In this document: positions 1-29,483 of the stretch, piece by piece | Layout of the letters: every line of letters starts with the position of its first letter | Numbering within the stretch: position 1 is the first letter of the stretch | Assembly (NCBI RefSeq): GCF_000734015.1 | Contig: NZ_CP008796.1 | Span: forward strand, 1,290,001 to 1,322,000 | Length of the DNA stretch: 32,000 nt | Source of the DNA: Thermodesulfobacterium commune DSM 2178 | GTDB lineage: Bacteria; Desulfobacterota; Thermodesulfobacteria; Thermodesulfobacteriales; Thermodesulfobacteriaceae | Direction of reading: 5' to 3' | Made by a program: the position numbers and the translations under genes | Notes under the pieces: model-generated | Databases searched by the model: none | Told to the model about the DNA's origin: nothing | The model's input: only the letters and a program-made list of their open reading frames with translations

Positions 1-1985
1 ACGAAAACGGAAATTACCATCTTATCGTGGGAAACGCTTCTTCTTACCTTCAGGCTTCAGGAAGGGTTTCAAGGCTCACTACTAAAGGACTTATGCCAGG
101 ACTTTCGGTTATCTTGGTAGATAGTTTTAAAGCCTTAAACAGTCTTAAAAAAAGACTAAGGTTTTATTTAGGGGATGAAGTAGAGTTAACAGAGGTGAAT
201 TTTGAAAAAATAATCGAGCTTGATACCCAAATAAAACAAGAAAGAGAAAAAATTTCAGCTGAAAAGATAGATTTTAAGAACTACCTTCTTATCGTAGAAT
301 CCCCTCATAAAGCCAAAACCATAGCTAGCTTCTTTGGAAAACCCTCGGTTAGAAGGTACACCAACCTATGGGTTTATGAAATACCGATGGAAAATACCCT
401 GCTTTCTGTCTGTGCTTCTTTAGGGCATCTTTATAACCTTTCCAGAAAAAAGGGGATATTTGGAGTTTTAAAGAATAACAGAACTTTTCATCCTGTTTTT
501 AATACCATAAAAATAGACAGAGAAACAGGAGAACAATATGTGGATGAAGAAGAAATAAAGGATAAAGAAAACATCTTTGACAAAGCTGACATTGTAGACG
601 GGCTTAGGATCCTTAGTTTTTGTTCAGACCAAACCTTTATTGCCTCAGATCCTGACTCAGAGGGAGAAAAGATTGCTTATGACATTTACATTAATCTGAA
701 ACCCTTTCAAAAAAATATTAAAAGACTAGAGTTTCACGAAGTTACGGTAAGAGCCCTTAAAAAAGCCTTTGAAACCCCTCAAGAAATAAACCTTCCTCGG
801 GTTAAAGCCCAGTTAGCCAGAAGGGTGGCAGATCGTTGGGTAGGGTTTTCTCTTTCTCAGGAATTATGGAAAGTTTTCCACAAAAACTATCTCTCAGCAG
901 GTAGGGTGCAAACTCCGGTTTTAGGATGGGTAATAGAAAGAGAAAAACTAAGTAAGCAACACAAATATCGAATAAACTTTACGATAAATGAATATCCCCT
1001 TTTTATCGAGGTAGAAGAAAAAGAAATTGCAGAGAAATTAGAACAACACCTACCTCAGGCTAAAATTACCTTAGAAGGCCAAAAAGAAGATGAACTTTCT
1101 CCACCTCCTCCTTATACCACAGACACCATACTGGAAGAAGCCTATAATTTCTTCAGGTTTTCTACCTCCTATACCATGTCTCTTTTGCAAGAACTCTTTG
1201 AACTCGGTTTAATCACCTATCATCGAACAGATTCAACTCGAATTTCAGACGTAGGACGGTTTCAGGTAGCTAAACCTTATATCTCAGAACATTTTGGAGA
1301 AGAGTTATTCTATCCGAGAGAATGGTTTAGTGAAGGAGCCCATGAAGGTATAAGGCCTACCCGTCCCTGGGATGTAGAAGAACTAAAACTAAGGGTAGCC
1401 CACGGATTAATCTCTTTTAAAAATTATAAGGATAGTTTTAGATTGTATGACCTTATTTTTAGAAGATTTATAGCAAGTCAGATGAGAAAAACTAAAGTCT
1501 TAAAAAAGAACCTTAAGTTGGTCCTTCCCTTTTTCGCCTGGGAAGAAGAAGTGATAGTAGACATACTTTCAAACGGTTATGATTTAGTTTGGACCAAACC
1601 ACATCTTTTCCCCGTTTCTCCTTCTTTTACCATAAACAACATTAAGTTACAAAAAATACCTAAAGCTTTTCTTTTTAATCAGGGGACTCTGATCCAGGAA
1701 ATGAAAAAAAGAGGGTTAGGTAGACCATCTACTTATGCAGAAATTGTTTCTACCCTTTTAAATAAGTATTATGTTTATGAGCTGAAAAACGGAGGACTTG
1801 TTCCTACAGCCTTAGGAAAACAGGTATACGAATATCTAAGGTCAAGGTTTGAAACCTATGTATCTGAGGAGTTTACCAGAAAACTTGAAGCCTTTATGGA
1901 CGAGGTAGAAGAAGGTAAAAAAGATTGGGTAGAAATTTGTTATACCCTTTTGCCTCTTCTAAAAGAATTGAACATCATCTTGTAA
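1..1985 (+). CDS. rgy: reverse gyrase, C-terminal ~660 aa (5' end outside the window)
   Basis: The frame is open from base 3 (ENGNYHLIVGNASSYLQASGRVSRL, a helicase motif VI-like QxxGRxSR). It continues into a type IA topoisomerase: Toprim start LLIVESPHKAKTIASFFG, acidic DPDSEGE, active-site region ITYHRTDSTRIS. A helicase-topo IA fusion in one frame is diagnostic of reverse gyrase. Stop TAA at 1983-1985. Confidence 0.85.
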   Translation, partial: ENGNYHLIVGNASSYLQASGRVSRLTTKGLMPGLSVILVDSFKALNSLKKRLRFYLGDEVELTEVNFEKIIELDTQIKQEREKISAEKIDFKNYLLIVESPHKAKTIASFFGKPSVRRYTNLWVYEIPMENTLLSVCASLGHLYNLSRKKGIFGVLKNNRTFHPVFNTIKIDRETGEQYVDEEEIKDKENIFDKADIVDGLRILSFCSDQTFIASDPDSEGEKIAYDIYINLKPFQKNIKRLEFHEVTVRALKKAFETPQEINLPRVKAQLARRVADRWVGFSLSQELWKVFHKNYLSAGRVQTPVLGWVIEREKLSKQHKYRINFTINEYPLFIEVEEKEIAEKLEQHLPQAKITLEGQKEDELSPPPPYTTDTILEEAYNFFRFSTSYTMSLLQELFELGLITYHRTDSTRISDVGRFQVAKPYISEHFGEELFYPREWFSEGAHEGIRPTRPWDVEELKLRVAHGLISFKNYKDSFRLYDLIFRRFIASQMRKTKVLKKNLKLVLPFFAWEEEVIVDILSNGYDLVWTKPHLFPVSPSFTINNIKLQKIPKAFLFNQGTLIQEMKKRGLGRPSTYAEIVSTLLNKYYVYELKNGGLVPTALGKQVYEYLRSRFETYVSEEFTRKLEAFMDEVEEGKKDWVEICYTLLPLLKELNIIL

Positions 1986-2069
1986 AATTTAAAAATGTTA
2001 TTAGGTTGTTGTTTTTTTTGTTTTTTTAAGTATACTTTTTTTAAACTATAGCTTTCCGGGAGGAGCTTG

Positions 2070-2972
2070 ATGAGATTTAAAAATGTTATTTTTGGTTTTT
2101 TGTTAGCCATAATCTTGTATATAGCTATTTTCCGAACTTTACTTCCAGAAAACAGTTTAGTTTTTAGTTTAGCCACTTTTGTCTATTTTGTTGCGGCTTT
2201 AATTTATTTTATACATTGGGTTTTTAAGTGGGATTGGGGAGGATTTGTAGGTTCTACCATTGGTTGGGCTGGGTTGTTTTTAAACCTCGCGGCTTTTTTT
2301 ATTAGATGGTATCAAACCCATCAAGCTGGCTTTGGCTACGTTCCTCTTTCCAACCTTTATGAATCTTTGGTCTTTTTTGGACTATGTATTGCATTAATTT
2401 ATCTTGTTATGGAGTTTAAATTTCCTTCTAAAGCCTTAGGAAGCATTACCTTTACTTTGACTGCTTTTATCATGGCCTATGCCTCTCTTAAAGCTCCTGC
2501 TGAAATCAAGCCACTTCTCCCAGCCCTAAAAAGTAATTGGTTGATAGCCCATGTAGTTACCTGTTTTTTGGGATATGGGGCTTTTGCCGTTACCTTTGGT
2601 CTAAGCCTGTTTTATCTCATCGGAGCTAATAAAACTCTCTCAGCCTCTTTGCAAGTTTCTTTAGAACATTTTATATATAGACTGATGCTTTTTGGTTTCT
2701 TTTGGCTTTCCTTAGGTATTATCACCGGATCTGTTTGGGCGGAGCAAGCTTGGGGAAGCTACTGGAGCTGGGACCCTAAGGAAACCTGGTCTTTTATCAC
2801 CTGGCTTATCTATGGCGGAGCCATCCATCTTCGTTTAATAAAAGGTTCTAAAGATTGGGGAGGGAAAAAACTTGCCTGGCTAAACATCATAGGGTTTGCC
2901 TCTGTACTTTTTACTTATTTTGGAGTAAACTTTTTATTGTCAGGATTACATAGTTATGCAACTCCAGGCTAA
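2070..2972 (+). CDS. ccsA: cytochrome c-type biogenesis protein, CcsA/ResC (heme-handling) family
   Basis: Polytopic membrane protein with the Trp-rich heme-handling signature WGSYWSWDPKETWSFITW and flanking conserved His residues (WLIAHV, GGAIHLR). ATG 2070 is preceded by GGGAGGAG. The track start at 2067 is a TTG one codon upstream. Confidence 0.8.
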   Translation: MRFKNVIFGFLLAIILYIAIFRTLLPENSLVFSLATFVYFVAALIYFIHWVFKWDWGGFVGSTIGWAGLFLNLAAFFIRWYQTHQAGFGYVPLSNLYESLVFFGLCIALIYLVMEFKFPSKALGSITFTLTAFIMAYASLKAPAEIKPLLPALKSNWLIAHVVTCFLGYGAFAVTFGLSLFYLIGANKTLSASLQVSLEHFIYRLMLFGFFWLSLGIITGSVWAEQAWGSYWSWDPKETWSFITWLIYGGAIHLRLIKGSKDWGGKKLAWLNIIGFASVLFTYFGVNFLLSGLHSYATPG

Positions 2973-2992
2973 TAAAACTGGAGGGGATTAAG

Positions 2993-3706
2993 ATGTTAGT
3001 AAAAAATTGGATGACTGAAGAAGTGATTACCTTAGAAGAAGAGGAACCTATAACCAGGGCTATTCAACTTTTAAAGGAACACCAAATACGAAGGATTCCC
3101 ATAACCAGAGGAGGAAAACTAGTAGGAATTGTTACCCAAACAGACATAAAAGAGGCTACCCCACCAAAATTCGTAGGGGTTGACCTAAAAGAACTTTATG
3201 ACCTTTTTTTAAACCTAAAAGTAAAAGACATCATGACCCCAGACCCTATCACCGTATCTCCAGAAGATACCATAGAAAAAGCTTCTGTCCTTATGCTTGA
3301 AAACAAAATCTCTGGACTTCCGGTAGTTAATGAAAATAATTATGTTATAGGGATTATCACTCAAACAGACATTTTTAAACTTTTTGTTCAACTAACTGGG
3401 GCTTATTTCAGTCCTTATCATGTAGCCCTTTATATCAACTCACCCTATCAACTTCCTGAGATTTTAGAAATTTTTAAGAATTTACAAATAAATATTTATA
3501 CCATTTTTTGCTGGAGAGACGAATTTTGTATAGATGATACCTGTAAAAAAAGAGTTTTTATTCGTTTCCAAGCTGTTGAAGAGGCTAAAATAAAGGAAGC
3601 TTTGGAAAAACTTGAGACTAAGTTTGAAATAGCTGAATTTAAGAAAGACAATATAAAAGATATCCCCCAAAAACGGAAAGAAGAAAAAAATTTATTGGTT
3701 TTCTAA
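2993..3706 (+). CDS. CBS-domain pair protein with an ACT-like C-terminal domain (AcuB-like)
   Basis: Two CBS repeats (VITLEEEEPITRAIQLLKEHQIRRIPI..GKLVGIVTQTDI and PITVSPEDTIEKASVLMLENKISGLPVV..VIGIITQTDI) are followed by a ~90-aa alpha/beta tail. SD GGAGGGG lies upstream of ATG 2993. Confidence 0.7.
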   Translation: MLVKNWMTEEVITLEEEEPITRAIQLLKEHQIRRIPITRGGKLVGIVTQTDIKEATPPKFVGVDLKELYDLFLNLKVKDIMTPDPITVSPEDTIEKASVLMLENKISGLPVVNENNYVIGIITQTDIFKLFVQLTGAYFSPYHVALYINSPYQLPEILEIFKNLQINIYTIFCWRDEFCIDDTCKKRVFIRFQAVEEAKIKEALEKLETKFEIAEFKKDNIKDIPQKRKEEKNLLVF

Positions 3707-5572
3707 ATTTTCAGTATTTTCTTGATTCTGAGTCTCTGTATTCTCTGTATATAAAAAGAACCCTTGAGGTTTATGATTAGTTCCTTTCATTACGCTTAAC
3801 CAAACAGGACAAGCAACCCTTCCTCCTGTTTCCCCTCTTTCTAACGTCTTACCTGAATCATAACCAACCCAAACACCACAAGTATAGGTAGGTGTAAACC
3901 CCACAAACCAAGCATCTCTATATTCCTGGGTAGTACCGGTTTTTCCAGCTACCGGCACACCCAATCCCCTGGCACAAGTTCCTGTTCCATAAAGAACTAC
4001 TGCCTGTAGGAAATCATTCATTATAGAAGCAGTGTAAGGAGAAATTACCGGCTTAGCTACCACATCAGTTTTGTAAATAGGGGTTTTAGCAAACAAACTA
4101 TCTCTCACTTCTTCTATAAACTTAGGTTTTACCATACGACCTAAGTTAGGGAAAATAGTAAAGCTCCTTGTGAGCTCTATCGGAGTTAATTCATAAGAAC
4201 CAAGGGCTATACTATAATTAAAATCTCTAGGGATGTTAAGTTCTAATTTTTGAACCATATCATAAATTTTTTCTCTTCCTAGCATCAAAGCAAGCCTTAC
4301 TGCTACTACGTTTCTTGACTTGGCTAAGGCATCCCTTAAGCTTATAGGACCTAAATACTGCCCATCATAATTTCCAGGTGACCAATCTTTGCCCTGGTCG
4401 CCTCCAGGAAGAGTTATAGGTTCATCGGGAATTACATCCTCTGGAGAGACTACTCGATCTTCAATAGCCTTAGCCCAGATAAAAGGCTTAAACGCAGACC
4501 CAGGTTGTCTTTTAGCTAGAATAGCTCTATTATAAGGAGAAGCCAAATAGTTTCTTCCTCCGATAAGAACCCTTACTCCTCCGTTTTTGTTTTCCATACA
4601 AACTACTGCTATCTCTGGAGGTTCTCTGTTCGTAAACATACGACTAAGGGTGTTCATAAGGTTTTCATATGCCTTCTTTTCCCACTCTAAATCAAGAGTA
4701 GTATAGACTACAAGTCCCCCCCTCTCTACTACCTCAGAAGGGAATAATTTTTTAAGTTCTTCTTTTATCACATCTAAGAAGTAGGCTGCATAAACAGGAA
4801 TGTTAACATTTTTAGGGTTTAAATGTATAGGTTGAGATGAAATAGCCTGAGCTTTTTCAGGAGAAATAAAACCTACCTCTGCCATTCTTTTAAGCACATA
4901 GTTTCTTCTAGCTATAGAAAGATTATAATTTTGAAGGGGATTATATTTAGAAGGGGCTGCCGGTAAACCTGCCAAAACCGCTGCCTCGTTTAAGTCTAAC
5001 TCCCAGACATGTTTGTTAAAATAAGTAAGGGCAGCAGCTTCTACTCCATAAGCCCCTTCCCCTAAGTAAATATGATTCAAATATATGGTTAGAATCTGAT
5101 CTTTGGTTAGATATTTTTCAATTTGCCAGGCCAAAAACATCTCTTTGATTTTTCTTCTAAGCGTCCTTTCAGGAGAAAGGACAAGGGACTTAACTACCTG
5201 TTGAGTAATGGTACTACCGCCTTGGACTACCTTACCATGAACGATATTTTTGTAAAGTGCCCTTAATAAACTCCAAAAATCTATCCCTTTATGTTTATAG
5301 AAATTAGCATCTTCTGCAGCTAAAAAAGCTTGGATTACATGAGGAGGGATTTTATCTATAGGTACAAAAACACGCCTTACTGGACCGATAAAACCTACCA
5401 GATTCCCATGAATATCGTATACCAAATTTGTTTGTTCTGGTCGGTAGTTTTTAAGCTTAGAAATACTTGGGAGACTAACCTTAAGATAAATAAACCCAGC
5501 TGCTAAAATTATAGAGAAGAAAAGAAAAATCGATAAAACCAAAATACCTGTCAACTTAAAGACAGAATTCAT
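3692..5572 (-). CDS. mrcA: class A penicillin-binding protein (PBP1A-type transglycosylase/transpeptidase)
   Basis: N-terminal TM anchor. GT51 motifs EDANFYKHKGID, GGSTITQQ and RRKIKEM. Transpeptidase motifs SAFKP (SxxK), KSRN (SxN) and KTGTT (KTG). It converges on and overlaps the CBS gene by 15 nt. Confidence 0.9.
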   Translation of the reverse strand: MNSVFKLTGILVLSIFLFFSIILAAGFIYLKVSLPSISKLKNYRPEQTNLVYDIHGNLVGFIGPVRRVFVPIDKIPPHVIQAFLAAEDANFYKHKGIDFWSLLRALYKNIVHGKVVQGGSTITQQVVKSLVLSPERTLRRKIKEMFLAWQIEKYLTKDQILTIYLNHIYLGEGAYGVEAAALTYFNKHVWELDLNEAAVLAGLPAAPSKYNPLQNYNLSIARRNYVLKRMAEVGFISPEKAQAISSQPIHLNPKNVNIPVYAAYFLDVIKEELKKLFPSEVVERGGLVVYTTLDLEWEKKAYENLMNTLSRMFTNREPPEIAVVCMENKNGGVRVLIGGRNYLASPYNRAILAKRQPGSAFKPFIWAKAIEDRVVSPEDVIPDEPITLPGGDQGKDWSPGNYDGQYLGPISLRDALAKSRNVVAVRLALMLGREKIYDMVQKLELNIPRDFNYSIALGSYELTPIELTRSFTIFPNLGRMVKPKFIEEVRDSLFAKTPIYKTDVVAKPVISPYTASIMNDFLQAVVLYGTGTCARGLGVPVAGKTGTTQEYRDAWFVGFTPTYTCGVWVGYDSGKTLERGETGGRVACPVWLSVMKGTNHKPQGFFLYTENTETQNQENTENLENQ

Positions 5573-5580
5573 AAAAGTTT

Positions 5581-5608
5581 ATTATACCTTGATTTTTGAT
5601 TTTGAGAA
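5581..5608 (-). promoter_or_regulatory. putative sigma70-type promoter of the PBP gene (near-leaderless)
   Basis: Minus strand reads TTCTCA (5608-5603), 16 nt, TATAAT (5586-5581), then only 8 nt (aaactttt, no SD) before ATG at 5572. Confidence 0.35.
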
Positions 5609-5640
5609 CTTTTTAAAGAGATTTTTAAAAAGATTTAATT

Positions 5641-5660
5641 TAGGTATAAAAATAAAAAAA
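5641..5660 (-). terminator. T-tract immediately after the 5S rRNA (possible operon terminator)
   Basis: The minus strand reads ...GGTGCCCGGGA TTTTTTTATTTTTATACC directly after the closing strand of 5S helix I. No separate local hairpin was seen. Confidence 0.3.
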
Positions 5661-5780
<120 letters not shown>

Positions 5781-5838
5781 AACTTTAATATTTTTAACAA
5801 GTGAATGGGGTATCCTTTGGAACTTTTAAGCTGGTACT

Positions 5839-8864
<3,026 letters not shown>

Positions 8865-8944
8865 ACAGGAACCAGCTTAAAGATGCCAAAGGATACCCCT
8901 ATTCACTTGTCAAAGATCTAATTTTTCCACCACTTTTCATTAAG

Positions 8945-9020
8945 TGGTGGAGGTGAACGGATTCGAACCGTCGACCTCCGGCTTGCAAAGCCGGCGCTCT
9001 CCCAACTGAGCTACACCCCC
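8945..9020 (-). tRNA. tRNA-Ala (anticodon TGC), CCA encoded
   Basis: The reverse complement GGGGGTGTAGCTCAGTTGGGAGAGCGCCGGCTTTGCAAGCCGGAGGTCGACGGTTCGAATCCGTTCACCTCCACCA folds as a 76-nt cloverleaf. It has the G3:U70 Ala identity pair and the anticodon loop TTTGCAA. Confidence 0.95.
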
Positions 9021-9057
9021 ACGCCTTCCTCCTAAACCCATCCTCTAACCAAGAGAA

Positions 9058-9133
<76 letters not shown>

Positions 9134-9153
9134 GTAATCCGCTCACCCATTCC

Positions 9154-9166
9154 TTTCAAAGAACAT
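9154..9166 (-). promoter_or_regulatory. boxA-like antitermination element in the 16S-tRNA spacer
   Basis: The minus strand reads ATGTTCTTTGAAA, almost identical to the leader copy at 10886-10899. It resembles the bacterial rrn boxA (TGTTCTTTGAAAA / GCTCTTTAACAA type). Confidence 0.6.
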
Positions 9167-9180
9167 AAAAATTTATATAG

Positions 9181-9202
9181 AATAGCGTCCGCAAGGAGCC
9201 CC
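9181..9202 (-). other. 3' half of the 16S precursor processing stem
   Basis: AATAGCGTCCGCAAGGAGCCCC is the near-perfect reverse complement of 10862-10882 (GGGGCCCTTGCGAACGCTATT), with one G.U pair and one bulge. The two halves bracket the mature 16S, as RNase III stems do. Confidence 0.75.
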
Positions 9203-9217
9203 TAAAATTCTCCTTAG

Positions 9218-10791
<1,574 letters not shown>

Positions 10792-10861
10792 AATTTTGTC
10801 CTGGCCACCTGCCTATAAACAGGCCGGCCGCAACTTTCAATTTAATTTAAAAAGGAATTGC

Positions 10862-10882
10862 GGGGCCCTTGCGAACGCTATT
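10862..10882 (-). other. 5' half of the 16S precursor processing stem
   Basis: Complementary to 9181-9202 (see that feature). Confidence 0.75.
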
Positions 10883-10885
10883 CAA

Positions 10886-10899
10886 TTTTCAAAGAACAT
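10886..10899 (-). promoter_or_regulatory. boxA-like antitermination element in the rrn leader
   Basis: The minus strand reads ATGTTCTTTGAAAA, just upstream of the 16S processing stem. Related copies follow each upstream promoter: GTCTTTTGAAAA at 10955-10966, GTTCTTTGTTAA at 11046-11057 and at 11145-11156. Confidence 0.6.
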
Positions 10900-10909
10900 T
10901 TTTAATAAA

Positions 10910-10937
10910 AAATTAAAACAACTTTTAAATTTGTCAA
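10910..10937 (-). promoter_or_regulatory. rrn promoter P1 (closest to 16S)
   Basis: Minus strand: perfect -35 TTGACA (10937-10932), 16-nt spacer, -10 TAATTT (10915-10910). The region is AT-rich. Confidence 0.55.
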
Positions 10938-10973
10938 GAGCCTTTGAAAAGAAATTTTCAAAAGACAAAATTT

Positions 10974-11001
10974 AATATAACACAATCTGTCTTTTTGTCA
11001 A
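10974..11001 (-). promoter_or_regulatory. rrn promoter P2
   Basis: Minus strand: CTCTTGACA -35 (11001-10996), 16-nt spacer, -10 TATATT (10979-10974). Confidence 0.6.
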
Positions 11002-11075
11002 GAGGCTTAAGCACCCTCCTAAAAACAACTCCTACCCTTCACTTCTTAACAAAGAACGACTTAGCGTGAAAATTA

Positions 11076-11103
11076 AATTTAACACAGCCCTGTAAATTGT
11101 CAA
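11076..11103 (-). promoter_or_regulatory. rrn promoter P3
   Basis: Minus strand: CTCTTGACA -35 (11103-11098), 16-nt spacer, -10 TAAATT (11081-11076). Confidence 0.55.
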
Positions 11104-11175
11104 GAGGGTTTTTAAATTTTATTTCTAATTTTTTCTTACCTCTTTTAACAAAGAACAATCTTAAACTTGATAAAA

Positions 11176-11203
11176 AGAATACACTAAATTTTTGGGTTGT
11201 CAA
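11176..11203 (-). promoter_or_regulatory. rrn promoter P4 (weakest -10)
   Basis: Minus strand: GTTGACA -35 (11203-11198), 16-nt spacer, -10 TATTCT (11181-11176). Confidence 0.4.
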
Positions 11204-11577
11204 CCCCTTATTCAAAAAATTTATATTTTTAAATTACATGGCATCAAGATTAGACGACTACACAATTTTTACCTTGTTTTTTAGCTTTATAAAGATTATT
11301 GTCTGCGATAAAAAGCATCTCTCTTAAACTGTTTTTAAGCTCAAGTGCTCCTCCGATAGAGTGTTAAATCTACTAAAAAAGTTTAGGAAGGGAAGAGAGG
11401 AGGGGTTGGGAGGGTTGGATTTGTGAGGGGTAGAGGAGATGGGATCTAAACTTTATTACTGGAATAAGGGGTTAAAGTGGGTTTTTAAAGGGGATTTTCC
11501 AAGAATAAGGTTGAGGATTTTACAGGGTTTTAAACATGTTTAAAAAAGAATTTATGAGGCTTTGCTGAAAAATGGAT

Positions 11578-16465: not shown

Positions 16466-16702
16466 ATGTTTTTAACAGAAATTATGAATGAAATAGATGA
16501 AATTGTCAAGGAAGTTAATGACCCAGAAGAGGCTGTAAGAAAAATCATGAAAAAAATAGCCTTATTAGAAAGGGAAGATAGGACTTTGGTGATTGAAGCA
16601 ATTGTAAGGAATTACATCATTGCTTTTAAGAGGGCAGAGTTTGCTACTGCAAAATATGAGGCGTTAAAGAGGGAAAAAGAAGCTTTAAAAGGGAAAGAGT
16701 AA
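16466..16702 (+). CDS. hypothetical helical protein
   Basis: 78 aa. SD GGAGGTG. Its stop overlaps the transposase start (TAATG). Confidence 0.55.
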   Translation: MFLTEIMNEIDEIVKEVNDPEEAVRKIMKKIALLEREDRTLVIEAIVRNYIIAFKRAEFATAKYEALKREKEALKGKE

Positions 16703-18645
16703 TGAGAGAGTTTGAGGTTTGGCTTTCAAGGGCTGAAGTCCAGGAACTTTTAGGGATAAGCCAGCAAGCTATATCAAAAGCTATCCAAAAAGGGAAATTC
16801 AAAGTTCAAGAAATATATGGGAATGGGGGAAGACAATACCGAATTGCTCTTTCCAGTTTGCCAGCTGATGCACAAGTAAGATATTTACAGGCTCATCCAG
16901 AGGTGTGGCAGGAGGCTTTAAAGATTAAAGAGCTTTCAGAGGAGGCAAGGGCTTTCTTAATTAAGAAGACACTTCCGCAAAAGGAAGAAAATGAAATATC
17001 CGTAAGGGTTGCAACAATGGATAGAGCTTGGGCAATAAAGGAATACTTGCAAAATCCTTGCTATGAGACGGCAAAAAGAATTGCTGAAGAGCTAAAAGTC
17101 CATGTGTCAACGATTTATAGATGGATAAAAAAGGCTGAAGAAGAGGCTGAAAGAATTCGGATGATGAAATTGGAAAAACAAACAGTGCCTATTAAGTTTC
17201 CACGAACAAGTGTGTCTGAGGATGTGCTGATTGAAAGCTTGAGCATCATTTTAAGCTCTCATGGAAAGAGAATTATCAACGGGTGGCAGTATGTAGTGAA
17301 TAAAGGGTATGATATCTCTTATTCGCAGTATACACGAATTCTCAATAAGATGACGCCACCTTTCAGTAAAATACTTGAGTATCACAGGTCTGGAAGAATT
17401 TCAGCATTACTTACAGAGACTCCCAAAATTATCAGGGCTTGGAGTGAGCTTCCGGTTATGCATACCCTTGTAGGGGACCAACATTATCTTGACTACTACA
17501 TGTATAGTCCGGAGCTTGATGAGGTGGTTAAGGTTCAGCTTTACATCTGGGCTGATTGTTCAAGTAGGTATTTTGTTTCTTGTGTGCCTTCAATTGGGGA
17601 GCAGTATACGCAATGGCATGTGCAGGTAAGTTTGGCTGAAGCTTTTAGAATACATGTTCCTTCTGAGATATACACCGACTGGGGTAAGCAAGAGAATTCA
17701 AAAATGACAGCTGAATTTATTGACAGGCTTGCTTCTGGGAAGATCTATCTTGGGGATTGGGATGATTTCTTAGAAAAGTATCCAGAGGCAAAGATAGCAA
17801 GAAAAAGGTCTACCCCGGGAGTTCCACCTGTTAAGCCAATTGAAAATATGATCAGGAGGTTTACTGAGTTTCTTAATCAAGAGGGGCTTACAGGTTATGC
17901 AAAGAGGGATTTGAAAGATCCGTTCAGAAACAAGCAAATTCAGGAATTATTGAAAGCACAAATTAAAAAGAAGGATCTACCAACGGTTGAAGAAGGCTTG
18001 AAGGTTATCGCAAATGTTATTGAGAAGTGCAATATAACGGAGATAAAAACAAAAGAAGGCAAGAGATTTATTCCAGCTGAGTTTTTATGGAAAGGACTTG
18101 AAGGAAGAAGGGTTGTTATTGGGGATGATGAGATTGCAATGATATTTTTCCCAGCTTTTGTGAGAAAGGTAAGAAATGCTTCGGTTCAAGTAAAACTTGG
18201 GACAAAAACGGTTGTCTTTACTGCAAAAGAATTGACTTGGCTTCGTGATGGGGAAGAGGTCATGATTAAAGTTAATCCTTTCCCTCCGCATGAAGGGTCA
18301 ATGTTTTTTAGATGGAATGGAAGTGATTGGGAATTTTTAGCTCCCGCTACAGTGTGGATTGGTCATAGGGTGCATCCTCAGGATCAGGAAAAGCTTGCTA
18401 AGGCTATGGAAGTGAAAAATCACTATCTTAAACAGTTCGTTTTAGCGATAAGAGAAATTCATGAGAGAGCAAAGAATACTTTTGGGGTGGTTGAAGATAA
18501 GCCTATAAGAAAATTGACATCCGCTATTAAACATAAGCAAGAAGGTATGGGAGATTTGATTTTCTTAGATATCAAAAAATTTAAAAACATAAGGGATAAG
18601 AATTGGGAAGCACTCGAGAAGCTTGCAGAATTTTATAATTATTAA
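16702..18645 (+). CDS. MuA-like DDE transposase
   Basis: 647 aa. N-terminal Mu-type wHTH (ISQQAISKAIQKGKF...YRIALSSLPADAQ). Second HTH (AKRIAEELKVHVSTIYRWIKK). rve-like core (LVGDQHYLDYY, IYTDWGKQENS). Long beta-rich C-terminus. A MuB-like ATPase gene follows immediately. Confidence 0.85.
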   Translation: MREFEVWLSRAEVQELLGISQQAISKAIQKGKFKVQEIYGNGGRQYRIALSSLPADAQVRYLQAHPEVWQEALKIKELSEEARAFLIKKTLPQKEENEISVRVATMDRAWAIKEYLQNPCYETAKRIAEELKVHVSTIYRWIKKAEEEAERIRMMKLEKQTVPIKFPRTSVSEDVLIESLSIILSSHGKRIINGWQYVVNKGYDISYSQYTRILNKMTPPFSKILEYHRSGRISALLTETPKIIRAWSELPVMHTLVGDQHYLDYYMYSPELDEVVKVQLYIWADCSSRYFVSCVPSIGEQYTQWHVQVSLAEAFRIHVPSEIYTDWGKQENSKMTAEFIDRLASGKIYLGDWDDFLEKYPEAKIARKRSTPGVPPVKPIENMIRRFTEFLNQEGLTGYAKRDLKDPFRNKQIQELLKAQIKKKDLPTVEEGLKVIANVIEKCNITEIKTKEGKRFIPAEFLWKGLEGRRVVIGDDEIAMIFFPAFVRKVRNASVQVKLGTKTVVFTAKELTWLRDGEEVMIKVNPFPPHEGSMFFRWNGSDWEFLAPATVWIGHRVHPQDQEKLAKAMEVKNHYLKQFVLAIREIHERAKNTFGVVEDKPIRKLTSAIKHKQEGMGDLIFLDIKKFKNIRDKNWEALEKLAEFYNY

Positions 18646-22528: not shown

Positions 22529-23050
22529 ATGCAGTATGCCCAAATTGGAGATGTAGTTTTTGAAGTCCTTGCATATAAAGAGCATAAAGAGGAATTAGAG
22601 TTTCCTTATGCAAGACATGAGACAATCAAGCCACCTTCAAGTTTACAATTTATGGGTGGAAAGGAGCTTAGAAAAATTAGTTTATCTGTGCGTTGGCATA
22701 GAGAATGGTGTAATCCTGAGGAAGAAAAGAAAAAGCTTGAAGAGTTTGCAGTAAAAGGAGAATATGCCAAATTTATTTTGGCGGAAAAGGTGATCGGAGA
22801 TTTCGTTATTGAAAAAGTTTTTTTTCAGATTCAGCAAATAGATGCTTTTGGAAAGCCAGTAATTATTGATGCAGATTTAGAATTGACAGAATATATTAAA
22901 AAAGAAATGAAAAAGAAGAAGATAGTATCTAAAAAAGCTCCGATGAAAAAAACTAAAAGCACAGCAAGTAGTCAGCCAAAATATCAAGTTATACAAGAGC
23001 AAAGCAAAGATAAATCAATTTCTATGCCGAAAATAGTTAAGGTATCATGA
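22529..23050 (+). CDS. P2 gpU-like tail protein
   Basis: IGDVVFEVL...YARHETIKPPSSLQFMGGKELRKISLSVRW...GDFVIEKV follows the Phage_P2_GpU pattern. It has a Lys-rich C-terminal tail. Confidence 0.7.
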   Translation: MQYAQIGDVVFEVLAYKEHKEELEFPYARHETIKPPSSLQFMGGKELRKISLSVRWHREWCNPEEEKKKLEEFAVKGEYAKFILAEKVIGDFVIEKVFFQIQQIDAFGKPVIIDADLELTEYIKKEMKKKKIVSKKAPMKKTKSTASSQPKYQVIQEQSKDKSISMPKIVKVS

Positions 23051-23253
23051 AATATATAACTAAGGAAGGTGATAGATGGGATTTGCTTGCCTGGAAGTTT
23101 TATGGGGATCCTTACCTTTATGAGCCTCTTCTTTTAGAGAATAAAGAGTTGATGGGGTTTACTGTGCTTCCTGCTGGAAAGGTGATTGAAATTCCAGAGG
23201 TTATAGATGAAACAACTCCTGAGGTAGTTGCTCCGCCGTGGCAGACAGATTAA
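23047..23253 (+). CDS. P2 gpX-like tail protein X (LysM-like)
   Basis: MKYITKEGDRWDLLAWKFYGDP...VLPAGKVIEIPEV parallels P2 X (MKTFALQGDTLDAICVRYYG...VLPHGTAVELPDV). Confidence 0.8.
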   Translation: MKYITKEGDRWDLLAWKFYGDPYLYEPLLLENKELMGFTVLPAGKVIEIPEVIDETTPEVVAPPWQTD

Positions 23254-24257
23254 TTCCAGAGCCTTATTTGTATGTAGAAATTAATAACAGGGATGTTTCG
23301 GCGTATATTACCCCTTTCTTACTTAGTTTTCGGTATATTGATAATGATGGACTTGATAAGAATGAGAGTGATGATGTAGAAATTGAAGTTGAAGATTCTC
23401 AAAGTTTTTTCAGAGATAATCCTCCTGCAAGAGGGAGTTCTTTAAAGGTCCGCTTTGGGTATGTAGATAAAATCAGAGATGCTGGAGTTTTCTTTATAGA
23501 TAGTTATAGTTTTAGGTATAGTAGGTCTGGAGCTGTTTTTACGATAAAAGCTTTAGCAAAAGATGTTAAAGCAAGCTTCAGGACACTAAAAACTACCGCT
23601 TTTGAAAATACAACATTCAAAAAAATAGCAGAAGATATAGCTAAGCGTAATGGATACAAACTATACTTTGAAGGTGCTGATATTTATTTTAAAAGGATAG
23701 ATCAATATAAAGAGCGAGATTTAGCTTTTTTGCAAAAGCTTTGTCAAAGATATGGCTATGTATGTAAGATTTCGGCAAGAAAAATTGTTATTCGGGATAT
23801 GGATAAAGTGTTAGGTGGTTCAGTTTTATATGTACTTACCCCTGAAGTTGTGATTGATTTAGATATTGAAGTATCAAGTCTTTATGCAGGGGATATAGAT
23901 GTTGCTTATTTAGATTTGAATAAAAAAGAGGCTACAGTGGATAAGAAAAAAACTGAGGTTAAAGCAAGCCAAAATATTCAGGTTGAGAGGGTAAGGGTTG
24001 AGAACAAAAAGCAGGCTGAAAGGATAGCTCATGCTCAGAAAACTCAAAATGAAATGAAAGAATTTAAAGGGAGGGTGCGTTGTATCGGGATTCCTGATAT
24101 TTATGCAAGCGGGAAGATTGGTCTTTCTGGTTTTGGAAAGTTTGACAGAGAATATTATGTTTCAAGGGTTGAGCATGAAATCACAAGAAATGGATACATT
24201 ACTCAGATTGAGTTTTATAAATCTCCACAACAAACTGGAGGTAAGAAAAAGAAATGA
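23238..24257 (+). CDS. P2 gpD / Mu gp44-like late control D (baseplate hub) protein
   Basis: 339 aa. Position after U/X and before V. Pattern ...LSFRYIDNDGLDKNESDDVEIEVED...RVEHEITRNGYITQIEF. Confidence 0.75.
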   Translation: MADRLIPEPYLYVEINNRDVSAYITPFLLSFRYIDNDGLDKNESDDVEIEVEDSQSFFRDNPPARGSSLKVRFGYVDKIRDAGVFFIDSYSFRYSRSGAVFTIKALAKDVKASFRTLKTTAFENTTFKKIAEDIAKRNGYKLYFEGADIYFKRIDQYKERDLAFLQKLCQRYGYVCKISARKIVIRDMDKVLGGSVLYVLTPEVVIDLDIEVSSLYAGDIDVAYLDLNKKEATVDKKKTEVKASQNIQVERVRVENKKQAERIAHAQKTQNEMKEFKGRVRCIGIPDIYASGKIGLSGFGKFDREYYVSRVEHEITRNGYITQIEFYKSPQQTGGKKKK

Positions 24258-24661
24258 TACGTCGGGGTATAGTTGTTGCAGTAGATGAGAAAACAGGAAA
24301 AGTAAGGGTTCAATTTCCTGATCTTGATGGGCTTGTATCTAATTGGTTGCCAGTTGTTTTTCAAAAGACTTGTAAAGATAAACATTATTGGATGCCTGAT
24401 GTCGGAGAATATGTTGTAGTTGCTTTTGATGAGGAAGGAGAAAAAAGCGATGGATATGTTCTTGGTGCTTTTTACAATGAGAAGGATACTGTGCCTGAAG
24501 TAGCCAATAAAGATAAATTCTTTGTGAGATTTGAAGATGGGACTGAGATTGAGTATGACAGGAAATCTCATAAGCTCAGAATTTCAGTTAGAGGAGATGT
24601 GCTTATTGAGGCTGATGGAAACATGACACTTAAAGCAAGTAGAATTGACCTAAACCCATAA
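24254..24661 (+). CDS. baseplate assembly protein V / Mu gp45-like central spike (OB-fold)
   Basis: IRRGIVVAVDEKTGKVRVQFPDLDGLVSNWLPVV....PDVGEYVVVAFDEEGEKSDGYVLGAFYN is the typical gpV/Vgr OB-fold start. Confidence 0.8.
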   Translation: MIRRGIVVAVDEKTGKVRVQFPDLDGLVSNWLPVVFQKTCKDKHYWMPDVGEYVVVAFDEEGEKSDGYVLGAFYNEKDTVPEVANKDKFFVRFEDGTEIEYDRKSHKLRISVRGDVLIEADGNMTLKASRIDLNP

Positions 24662-24674
24662 TGGAGGTGCAAAC

Positions 24675-24962
24675 ATGGGAGCTGTTGTTCGGCTTGGGGA
24701 CAATTCTTGTGGTCATGAATGCTTTCCACCTCGTCCAAACATAGAGGCGTCTCCTAATGTGTTTGTGAACGGCAAAGGTGCCCATAGACTTGGTGATGCT
24801 TGGGATGTGCATACCTGACCAGCTGGAAGGCATGACGGCGTGGCTTCAGGTGGAAGTCCAAATGTGTTTGTCAACGGAAAGCCAATTTGTCGAGTAGGAG
24901 ACCCTATTTCCTGCGGAGATACTATGTGTGAAGGTTCACCCAATGTTTTTGCTAATGGATAG
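24675..24962 (+). CDS. PAAR-repeat spike-tip protein interrupted by an in-frame TGA (Sec candidate or pseudogene)
   Basis: SD GGAGGTG 5 nt before ATG 24675. The 95 codons read ...RLGDNSCGHEC...SPNVFVNGKGAHRLGDAWDVHT[TGA 24816-24818]PAGRHDGVASGGSPNVFVNGKPICRVGDPISCGDTMCEGSPNVFANG*. It is absent from the ORF track because each half is under 60 aa. Confidence 0.75.
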
Positions 24963-24987
24963 TTTTTGAAAATGGATAGTTTTTGAA
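24954..24987 (+). repeat. perfect 17-bp tandem duplication AATGGATAGTTTTTGAA x2
   Basis: Copy 1 (24954-24970) contains the last PAAR codons and the stop. Copy 2 (24971-24987) runs into conserved box 2. Confidence 0.95.
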
Positions 24988-25020
24988 AATATTGCTTGTC
25001 TTTAGGTAATTCTTAGATAT
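24985..25020 (+). promoter_or_regulatory. conserved box 2 (putative late promoter)
   Basis: GAAAATATTGCTTGT, then 16-17 nt to TAGATAT. It lies upstream of the gp25-like to MuF block. Confidence 0.4.
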
Positions 25021-25032
25021 CTTCCATTTTAA

Positions 25033-25299
25033 ATGGAAAATTTAACCTCATCTTATGGAATAATTGGCATTATTTTTAATGGTGGTTATTTAGCAGTCGC
25101 TATTTTTCTTTTGTATTTGATTTATGAATTGAAAAAAAAACATGAAAAATTAGAAGAAAATCTTGATACACTTGAGAAAGAAAAAATTTCTAAAGATGAG
25201 TTTTACCGCAGTGTTTCAGGATGGAGAGAAGAAATAAATACATTACATAAAAAAATAGATGACTTAAAAGACCTTATTATAAAGGAGAAACTCAAATGA
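25033..25299 (+). CDS. Mu gp25-like membrane/coiled-coil protein (DUF2730-like)
   Basis: N-terminal TM (IIGIIFNGGYLAVAIFLLYLIY), then a coiled coil. Called from its position three genes upstream of the large terminase; no diagnostic motif was recognised. Confidence 0.5.
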   Translation: MENLTSSYGIIGIIFNGGYLAVAIFLLYLIYELKKKHEKLEENLDTLEKEKISKDEFYRSVSGWREEINTLHKKIDDLKDLIIKEKLK

Positions 25300-25592
25300 G
25301 GTTAGCTTCACTTTCATTGAGATATAAAATTTTAGACTTTCTATACAAAGTTTATCCTGAGGCTGTTGAAGAGCTTACTATTATTCATGTCTTTTACGAA
25401 TATCACACTGTAGATGATATTAAGAAACATCTAAATTATCTTGTTGATAAAGGCTATATAGAGCAAAAAGAGATTTGTCTTAGGCTTGGGACTAAAAAGA
25501 CTACTAATATTTATAAGATAACCTCTAAAGGAATTGACCTTATGCAAGGAATCATTCAGGATAAAGCAATACCAATCCCTGAGGATGAATAA
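25296..25592 (+). CDS. small winged-helix protein (Mu gp26 position)
   Basis: 98 aa, IKKHLNYLVDKGYIEQKE...YKITSKGIDL wHTH-like. Start overlaps the previous stop (ATGA). Confidence 0.5.
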   Translation: MRLASLSLRYKILDFLYKVYPEAVEELTIIHVFYEYHTVDDIKKHLNYLVDKGYIEQKEICLRLGTKKTTNIYKITSKGIDLMQGIIQDKAIPIPEDE

Positions 25593-28883: not shown

Positions 28884-29483
28884 ATGAGGAGGGCTTTGAG
28901 TAATACGATAATTCTATTTGGGCTTGTGTGGACTGCTCAGGCTCAGGCTGGGATTGTGGATAGATGCATGAAGTATGCACCGCTTGTAATTCGTGAGGCA
29001 AGATATCATATCGGGATGAATGCACCAGCTCATCTCTTTCTCGGGCAAATAGAGCAGGAGTCCAGATGTAATGAAAGGGCTACAGCTTTTGATGGCGGGA
29101 TGGGGCTTGGGCAGTTTATGCCTGAGACCGCAAAAGAGCTACACGAGAGGTATAAGGTGCTTCAGGAGTTCCCTTTTAATCCCTATGACCCGAGATGGAA
29201 TATAAGGGCTCTAATCCTCTATGATAGGGAATGTTATAACTCGGTTTCCTGTCGGGGCTGGTATTTTGCCTTCCGAGCCTATAACGGAGGAGCTTCCCTG
29301 CTAAACAAGGAGATAGCCAGGGCTGGAAGCTGTGATGTAGAAAAGGTTGAAGCCCACTGTAAGCGAAAGGTCATCAGGCTTAAGAATGGCTCTCTACTTG
29401 ACCTATGCGTAGTGAACATTGAGTATCCTTATCGCATCTTTGAGAAGTCTGAGAAGTATAAAAGGAGGCTTGAGGTTAGATGA
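28884..29483 (+). CDS. endolysin: secreted lytic transglycosylase (SLT domain)
   Basis: Signal peptide MRRALSNTIILFGLVWTAQAQA/G. Catalytic region GQIEQESRCN and GMGLGQFMPETA. The track start is TTG 28872. Confidence 0.8.
   Translation: MRRALSNTIILFGLVWTAQAQAGIVDRCMKYAPLVIREARYHIGMNAPAHLFLGQIEQESRCNERATAFDGGMGLGQFMPETAKELHERYKVLQEFPFNPYDPRWNIRALILYDRECYNSVSCRGWYFAFRAYNGGASLLNKEIARAGSCDVEKVEAHCKRKVIRLKNGSLLDLCVVNIEYPYRIFEKSEKYKRRLEVR

Follow-up and report, generated by a model that had tools for sequence, protein, structure and literature searches.

A PAAR spike-tip gene with a conserved in-frame UGA, probably decoded as selenocysteine, in a prophage of Thermodesulfobacterium commune

The window analysed here is a 32,000-nt stretch of the Thermodesulfobacterium commune DSM 2178 genome (NZ_CP008796.1, positions 1,290,001 to 1,322,000 of the forward strand), and all coordinates below are positions within it. 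This bacterium lives in hot springs, and the window carries a Mu/P2-like prophage, in which the gene for a PAAR protein, the tip of the phage tail spike, is interrupted by an in-frame TGA. The standard list of open reading frames (ORFs) holds just fragments of 47 aa and 40 aa at this place, plus antisense ORFs. A preliminary description of the window had recognised that the ORF track misses the gene, which the TGA cuts into pieces of less than 60 aa, and had suggested that this codon is decoded, probably as selenocysteine (Sec). Its statements on the sequence itself (coordinates, GGAGGTG motif, gap after the gpV gene and 95 codons) were all confirmed here, and its core idea gained strong support from the comparative data presented below. 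The gene and its immediate surroundings are as follows.

24254..24661, forward strand: gpV-like spike gene (OB-fold, PF04717), stop codon at 24659-24661
24663..24669, forward strand: Shine-Dalgarno motif GGAGGTG, 5 nt upstream of the ATG
24675..24962, forward strand: PAAR spike-tip gene with 95 sense codons, one internal UGA and a TAG terminator (start ATG at 24675, TAG at 24960-24962)
24816..24818, forward strand: in-frame UGA, codon 48, the proposed selenocysteine codon

Read from its ATG, the gene encodes MGAVVRLGDNSCGHECFPPRPNIEASPNVFVNGKGAHRLGDAWDVHT, then the TGA, then PAGRHDGVASGGSPNVFVNGKPICRVGDPISCGDTMCEGSPNVFANG, and ends at the TAG. A total of 13 nt separate the gpV stop from the PAAR ATG, and both the gpV-then-PAAR gene order and the GGAGGTG motif 5' of the PAAR gene are retained in all related loci. 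With the stop read as Cys, the product matched the Pfam family PAAR_motif (PF05488) with E = 5e-17 and 62.3 bits (cut-off 27) over residues 23-84, across the UGA, and its residues 7-93 could be aligned to the solved PAAR tips T4 gp5.4, P1 UpfC and VCA0105, which bears out the earlier assignment to this family. The AlphaFold2 (AF2) model of the full-length product formed one continuous domain (pLDDT 97.3, pTM 0.87). In Foldseek comparisons this model superimposed on T4 gp5.4 (4KU0_D) with a template modelling (TM) score of 0.92 and a root-mean-square deviation of 1.1 Å over 95 columns, and reached TM scores of 0.90 with P1 UpfC (9VYI) and 0.89 with VCA0105 (4JIV_D). The full-length product is accordingly modelled as a conical three-repeat PAAR fold, in agreement with the three PAAR-type repeats that had been described from the sequence.

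Relatives were fetched from viral and metagenome collections by means of the window gpV protein, and the PAAR gene was then located in each. A TGA at the identical codon 48 was present in eight further independent contigs (L081, L107, L108, L083, L002, L109, L018 and L102), giving nine independent assemblies with the window: one isolate genome and eight hot-spring metagenome or viral contigs. The proteins of these relatives are 83-96% identical to the window PAAR, and their flanks and terminators differ. A second TGA site was found in L084 and L086 at codon 17, which corresponds to column 16 of the family alignment (GHSP-stop-FP), so that 11 TGA-type genes were recovered overall, nine with the stop at codon 48 and two at codon 17. 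In these genes the internal stop was always TGA and the terminator always TAA or TAG, and neither TAA nor TAG was ever seen at the codon 48 or codon 17 site. The nearest relative without a stop, L082 (identical to L001), has TGT (Cys) at codon 48, and all more distant homologues and outgroups have TGT or TGC at this column; L085/L003, the sisters of L084 and L086, have TGT at column 16. In a neighbour-joining tree the genes with TGA at codon 48 form one clade, inside which the TGT gene L082 is nested as sister to L108, and the pair with TGA at column 16 is sister to a Cys gene, all outgroups being Cys at both columns. The refuting conditions that had been proposed at the outset thus came out on the side of decoding: most close homologues keep the TGA at codon 48 (nine assemblies), the stop maps to a column that is Cys in 174 of 200 homologues (87%), and published data list the host genus as a Sec user.

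Further TGA-type PAAR genes were found neither by a PAAR-profile scan of viral contigs, nor by an exact-pattern scan, nor by a sweep of all 252 loci with a hidden Markov model that reads through TGA; tblastn ranking disfavours genes with stops. In a protein database of 5.8 billion clusters the best match was 78% identical, and no TGA-type gene was among the matches listed; closer matches are missing because gene callers split genes of this type. A scan of a genome collection recovered seven loci from metagenome-assembled genomes (MAGs), T. commune not among them.

TGA is one substitution away from TGC or TGT, and stop-codon recoding is known in some phages, so the codon might be a sequencing or assembly error, or TGA might be reassigned in the phage or its host. 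An error is contradicted by independent assemblies from different samples that share the TGA. As to reassignment, TGA terminates 5 of the 24 window genes (including those ending at 23048-23050 and 29481-29483, as previously pointed out, and the ATGA overlap of gpU and tail protein X) as well as genes in every TGA-bearing locus, and no other window gene has an internal stop. TGA is therefore an ordinary stop in this prophage rather than a reassigned codon, and we regard the probability of an error or a reassignment as negligible.

Selection was assessed from the proportions of non-synonymous and synonymous change (Nei-Gojobori pN/pS) over ten distinct genes of the window clade, the nine TGA-type genes plus the Cys-type L082. 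Compared to a pN/pS of 0.195 for codons 1-47, codons 49-95 gave 0.091, at a synonymous divergence (pS) of up to 0.74 within the clade. Between L108 and L102 the 3' half differs by ~26 synonymous and 6 non-synonymous changes, and Fisher tests for purifying selection after the stop gave p = 2e-15 for this pair and 2e-13 and 8e-12 for two others. The window-clade genes contain no indels and no further stops, and all invariant family residues are intact in the window PAAR. Directly after the UGA, codons 49-55 are conserved, including the invariant His53 with synonymous CAT/CAC variation. L084 and L086 likewise differ, after their codon-17 TGA, by 14 synonymous versus 2 non-synonymous codon differences. 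This pattern of substitution indicates that the region after the UGA is translated.

The preliminary description had offered a nonsense pseudogene, in keeping with a truncated tail module in a decaying prophage, as its alternative. The stop does split the gene into pieces of less than 60 aa, and decayed-looking PAAR copies do exist in low-coverage Thermodesulfobacteriota MAGs: L246 (2292-2564) has a TGA at the Trp43 column and substitutions at invariant residues, and L245 (4001-4270) has a TGA at the invariant Arg73, further TGAs at Cys columns 48 and 52, and substitutions at other invariant residues (for L245, either decay of a Sec-type gene or a variant with two Sec residues plus errors is conceivable). 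However, the same TGA recurs on two phage backbones and in nine assemblies, which are too divergent to be copies of one contaminating assembly, downstream pN/pS is low with p down to 2e-15, there are no frameshifts and the invariant residues are retained. Because the TGA is shared, purifying selection acts downstream and the frame is intact, we reject the pseudogene explanation, which we consider extremely unlikely.

Translation of the 3' part could in principle be achieved by termination at the UGA and a restart at an internal start codon, with the two polypeptides assembling into one cone. An in-frame GTG (codon 56, 24840) does follow a GGAAGG motif, and 24840-24962 is among the ORFs that the finder reports. 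However, codon 56 is GTT in L083, L002 and L102, and L102 lacks any in-frame start in codons 49-65. A restart would also leave the conserved codons 49-55, with the Zn ligand His53, untranslated, and it sits poorly with the single continuous domain of the AF2 model. Since GTG56 is not kept, L102 is startless and codons 49-55 are conserved, an internal restart is excluded, and a split gene appears very improbable.

The TGA had been placed at a conserved metal-ligand Cys. The Cys is indeed conserved, but it is not one of the canonical ligands. The canonical Zn site of PAAR proteins (VCA0105, c1882, gp5.4) consists of three His and one Cys (PMC10715212), and in the window protein these positions, together with the putative partner of residue 48, are encoded as follows.

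24714..24716, forward strand: His14 codon, canonical Zn ligand
24720..24722, forward strand: Cys16 codon (TGC), putative partner of residue 48
24810-24812, forward strand: His46 codon, canonical Zn ligand
24831-24833, forward strand: His53 codon, canonical Zn ligand
24912-24914, forward strand: Cys80 codon, canonical Zn ligand

H14, H46, H53 and C80 do not vary among 50 homologues, and in the alignment they coincide with the ligands of 4JIV and 4KU0, so that codon 48 does not encode a canonical ligand; the window PAAR is predicted to bind Zn at its apex through three His and one Cys. Residues 16 and 48 are each separated by a single residue from a preceding Zn-ligand His (H14 and H46, respectively), and in solved PAAR structures these two columns hold Gly/Lys, Ala/Ile or Gly/Asp. 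Over 200 distinct homologues, in counts uncorrected for phylogeny, Cys16 and Cys48 were both present in 174, both absent in 25 and discordant in 1 (Fisher p = 6e-31), and Cys47 and Cys52 were both present in 120, both absent in 77 and discordant in 3 (Fisher p = 2e-52). Gain and loss of one pair are independent of the other, which points to two distinct units of two residues each, for instance disulfides, and away from a single four-Cys site. As columns 16 and 48 co-vary, the two independent TGAs take the places of both members of a single Cys pair; given 14-21 codons that one substitution would turn into TGA, the chance that two random one-step TGA mutations would both fall on the pair is ~0.01-0.02.

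Most relatives, and L102 as well, contain the C47/C52 motif (H-C-C-x-x-x-C-H). The other members of the Sec clade have lost it and carry T/S at position 47 and R/S at position 52 (T47, 24813-24815, and R52, 24828-24830, in the window). This loss suggests that one cross-link was relaxed after Sec acquisition.

Two stem-loops downstream of the UGA were compared as candidates for the selenocysteine insertion sequence (SECIS).

24819..24853, forward strand: hairpin of the preliminary description, overlapping the candidate SECIS core and mutually exclusive with it
24842..24858, forward strand: candidate SECIS core GGCUUC-AGGUG-GAAGUC, with a 6 bp stem, a 5-nt loop and 29 nt from UGA to loop

The first of these can be drawn with 13 pairs, but the 61-nt fold has z = -0.35 and 71 of 200 shuffled sequences were equally stable. 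In an alignment of eight codon-48 genes (L002 left out), 88.5% of its cells were paired with 0 compensatory changes, and synonymous third-position changes disrupt it in L083, L108, L018 and L102; it is also broken in L002. We then applied the bacterial SECIS (bSECIS) constraints of Zhang and Gladyshev as given in PMC13188914, namely an apical loop of 3-9 nt, an upper stem of 4-16 bp, a G in the first two loop positions, 16-37 nt from UGA to loop and a minimum free energy of ≤ -7.5 kcal/mol, and the 24819-24853 hairpin satisfied them in L109 only. The SECIS-like hairpin as originally drawn is thus possible on paper but neither conserved nor unusually stable.

RNAalifold instead gave the consensus hairpin GGCUUC-AGGUG-GAAGYC at 24842-24858, with 95.8% of cells paired in eight TGA genes, and this was the sole element that passed the bSECIS constraints in all nine codon-48 genes, at a spacing of 29-30 nt. 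The codon-17 genes passed with CAGGG-GUC-CCCUG at a spacing of 26 nt, whereas their Cys sister L085, with the loop AUC, fails. All 11 TGA genes therefore pass, with one shared element per site. The GGU loop of the Sec clade arises through replacement of Ser59 by Gly. Within this clade the stem codons GCT and GGA never vary, although 72% of comparable codons do; Cys-type genes have many synonymous alternatives at those stem codons. We infer from these patterns which hairpin would serve, and consider 24842-24858 a plausible location of the SECIS.

Sec decoding is available in the genus Thermodesulfobacterium. All four Thermodesulfobacterium genomes analysed by Peng 2016 (supplementary file 3) are Sec users with 3-5 selenoproteins each: T. 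thermophilum (4), T. hveragerdense (5), T. geofontis (3) and strain OPB45 (3). T. thermophilum and T. hveragerdense have proteins at least 90% identical to those of the window strain. In addition, every Thermodesulfobacteria genome with selC* was found to have the full selABCD set (Mukai 2017). No tRNA-Sec or suppressor tRNA was found in the window or the fetched TGA loci, and T. commune has no entry in the supplements of Mukai 2017, the Secmarker paper, the deep-Sep paper and a 2026 review.

Overall, the gene shows the features by which a new selenoprotein family is recognised in silico, because it has a conserved UGA, Cys homologues, downstream conservation, a SECIS-compatible stem-loop and a Sec-using host clade. 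We consider it likely that Sec is inserted at the codon-48 UGA, and comparative evidence makes a new selenoprotein family probable.

Several observations weigh against this conclusion. The case for selenium in the protein rests on comparative and predicted evidence, and selenoproteins are nearly always redox enzymes, so that a structural role would be unusual. T. commune DSM 2178 is absent from the Peng 2016 list, so that the host support is at the level of the genus, and ~7-10 kb of extra chromosome flank contained no sel genes. The bSECIS constraints are permissive: in the phage's own genes they are passed at 22% of background positions (7% at E ≤ -12), and 62% of Cys-type homologues pass at the same column. 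The 24842-24858 hairpin has no compensatory double change at any pair, its loop U is A in L108 and L018, and Rfam scans (24600-25050 at E ≤ 10, and the whole window) returned no SECIS or other relevant family. Finally, the Cys-column counts ignore kinship, the contact between residues 16 and 48 is deduced from co-variation, and no solved PAAR structure has the pair.

The UGA might also be recoded without Sec, either as Cys by a SelC*-type tRNA-Cys that reads opal and can be delivered by SelB, or as Cys or Trp by near-cognate read-through. One PAAR per tail suffices, and low efficiency might throttle a protein that is needed once per virion. This alternative is raised by the occurrence of selC* tRNA-Cys genes in Thermodesulfobacteria (Mukai 2017, PMC5389517); selC* genomes all carry a complete selABCD, and a delta-proteobacterial selC* tRNA-Cys translates opal as Cys. 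The permissive SECIS model and the variable loop U count in its favour as well. On the other side, both independent TGAs land exactly on the partner Cys columns. Trp would destroy the Cys pair, and for attenuation pure and simple any position would do. A need for Cys alone could be satisfied by TGT through a single substitution, yet this step was taken once only, in L082, and the TGA is held across a pS of ~0.7. Nor is there a suppressor tRNA in the prophage region of the window or in the fetched TGA loci. We regard recoding without Sec as unlikely, and infer Sec rather than Cys as the inserted residue.

If Sec is inserted, the prophage would make a complete, functional PAAR cone that caps its gpV tail spike. 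During late-gene translation the codon-48 UGA would be read through rather than act as a terminator, host SelB with Sec-tRNA-Sec being recruited by the small stem-loop ~24-40 nt 3' of the UGA (core 24842-24858). Sec48 would stand in, near the apex, for the Cys that is always paired with Cys16 in Cys-type relatives, and could form a Sec48-Cys16 selenenylsulfide instead of a disulfide, as a staple between PAAR repeats 1 and 2. Compared to S-S bonds, Se-S bonds are quicker to form and have lower reduction potentials. Such a staple would form readily and resist reduction, properties that would be of use to a virion tip in water that is hot, sulfidic and reducing. We propose this role next to the Zn apex tentatively, on account of the co-variation, the positions two residues after a Zn-ligand His and the chemistry of Se-S bonds. 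It is conceivable, although we hold this with some reserve, that hot-spring phages twice independently turned one partner of the Cys16-Cys48 pair to Sec and so obtained a reduction-resistant staple.

The TGA-type PAAR sits in two unrelated tail modules. In one group of phages gpD is 96-98% identical to that of the window, compared to 30-31% in the other, and gpV is 98% versus 64-66% identical, while the PAAR proteins are 83-96% identical across both modules. The lower values come from the mosaic phages L107, L108, L109, L018 and L102, compared over window positions 23238-24962. Either the PAAR gene travels between phages as a cassette, or it is under much tighter constraint than the genes beside it; it seems that a functional PAAR cassette has been exchanged and kept. 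Upstream (5') of the PAAR gene lie gpU, tail protein X, gpD and the OB-fold spike gpV, and downstream (3') a Mu gp27-like protein, then the large terminase and the portal. An exact-sequence look-up of the window gpV returned no record.

A 17-bp tandem duplication (ATGGATAGTTTTTGAAA, two copies, 24955-24988) straddles the PAAR stop codon, with no obvious effect on the PAAR ORF; it is a single copy in L082, a diverged single copy in L083 and a shorter partial repeat in L081. Just 3' of the PAAR gene, a 98-aa ORF (25296-25592) has weak winged-helix matches and is 95-99% conserved in group-A relatives. It was considered as a dedicated recoding factor of the winged helix-turn-helix type and rejected: since group-B loci keep the TGA without this ORF, it is unlikely to be needed for recoding.

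Window positions 1-11361 are 99.6% identical to a prophage-free, T. commune-like metagenome contig (L248, 7009-18371). Homology ends at 11361, which places the left end of the Mu-like element at ~11362, and the break in L248 falls inside a GGDEF response-regulator gene, which the insertion disrupts. The transposase-like gene of the element lies at 16702-18645. A complete 5S-23S-tRNA-Ala-tRNA-Ile-16S operon (5662-10791, reverse strand) adjoins the prophage, ~600 bp from its left end.

If Sec insertion is borne out, this would be the first bacteriophage-encoded selenoprotein and the first in a phage particle, extending Sec biology to bacteriophages, and a rare natural example in which Sec serves structure or stability and not catalysis. 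Phage infectivity would be tied to host selABCD and selenium supply, a dependence whose ecology could be tested in hot springs and which might also mark host range, and the two independent events at partner residues would offer a clean system for studying Se-S versus S-S differences. Standard gene callers systematically miss TGA-type PAAR genes. No PAAR or phage selenoprotein was described in the literature searched, and a 2026 catalogue review of selenoproteins makes no mention of phage, virus, PAAR, tail, spike or secretion.

Compared to the PAAR tips of phages and type VI secretion systems (PF05488; T4 gp5.4 4KU0, P1 UpfC 9VYI, VCA0105 4JIV), the window protein is alike in its ~95 aa, three repeats, His3Cys ligand columns, position directly 3' of the spike gene and TM scores of 0.89-0.92, but it has an extra, co-varying Cys16/Cys48 pair of which one partner is UGA-encoded. 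With bacterial selenoprotein genes, for which E. coli fdhF is the paradigm, it shares the in-frame UGA at a Cys column, downstream conservation and a Sec-using genus, and the candidate stem-loop, like those of bSECIS genes, has a G in the first two loop positions and lies 26-30 nt after the UGA. Unlike that of fdhF, the hairpin is short (5-6 bp) and further from the UGA, and it is a putative element without covariation. Decoding by selC* tRNA-Cys (Mukai 2017, PMC5389517) is similar in its occurrence in Thermodesulfobacteria and in UGA at Sec/Cys positions, but the residue inserted would be Cys instead of Sec, and neither the window nor the fetched loci contain such a tRNA. The glutathione-peroxidase homologues of molluscum contagiosum and fowlpox viruses (PMC1802603, PMC6769590) are alike in that a virus UGA is decoded by host Sec machinery; those eukaryotic-virus selenoproteins are captured host antioxidant enzymes with a eukaryotic SECIS, whereas the gene described here encodes a phage structural protein and would use a bacterial-type element within the ORF. 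Nearly all prokaryotic selenoproteins known so far are cellular redox enzymes. Set against these families, the T. commune gene is phage-borne and encodes a non-enzymatic protein of the virion.

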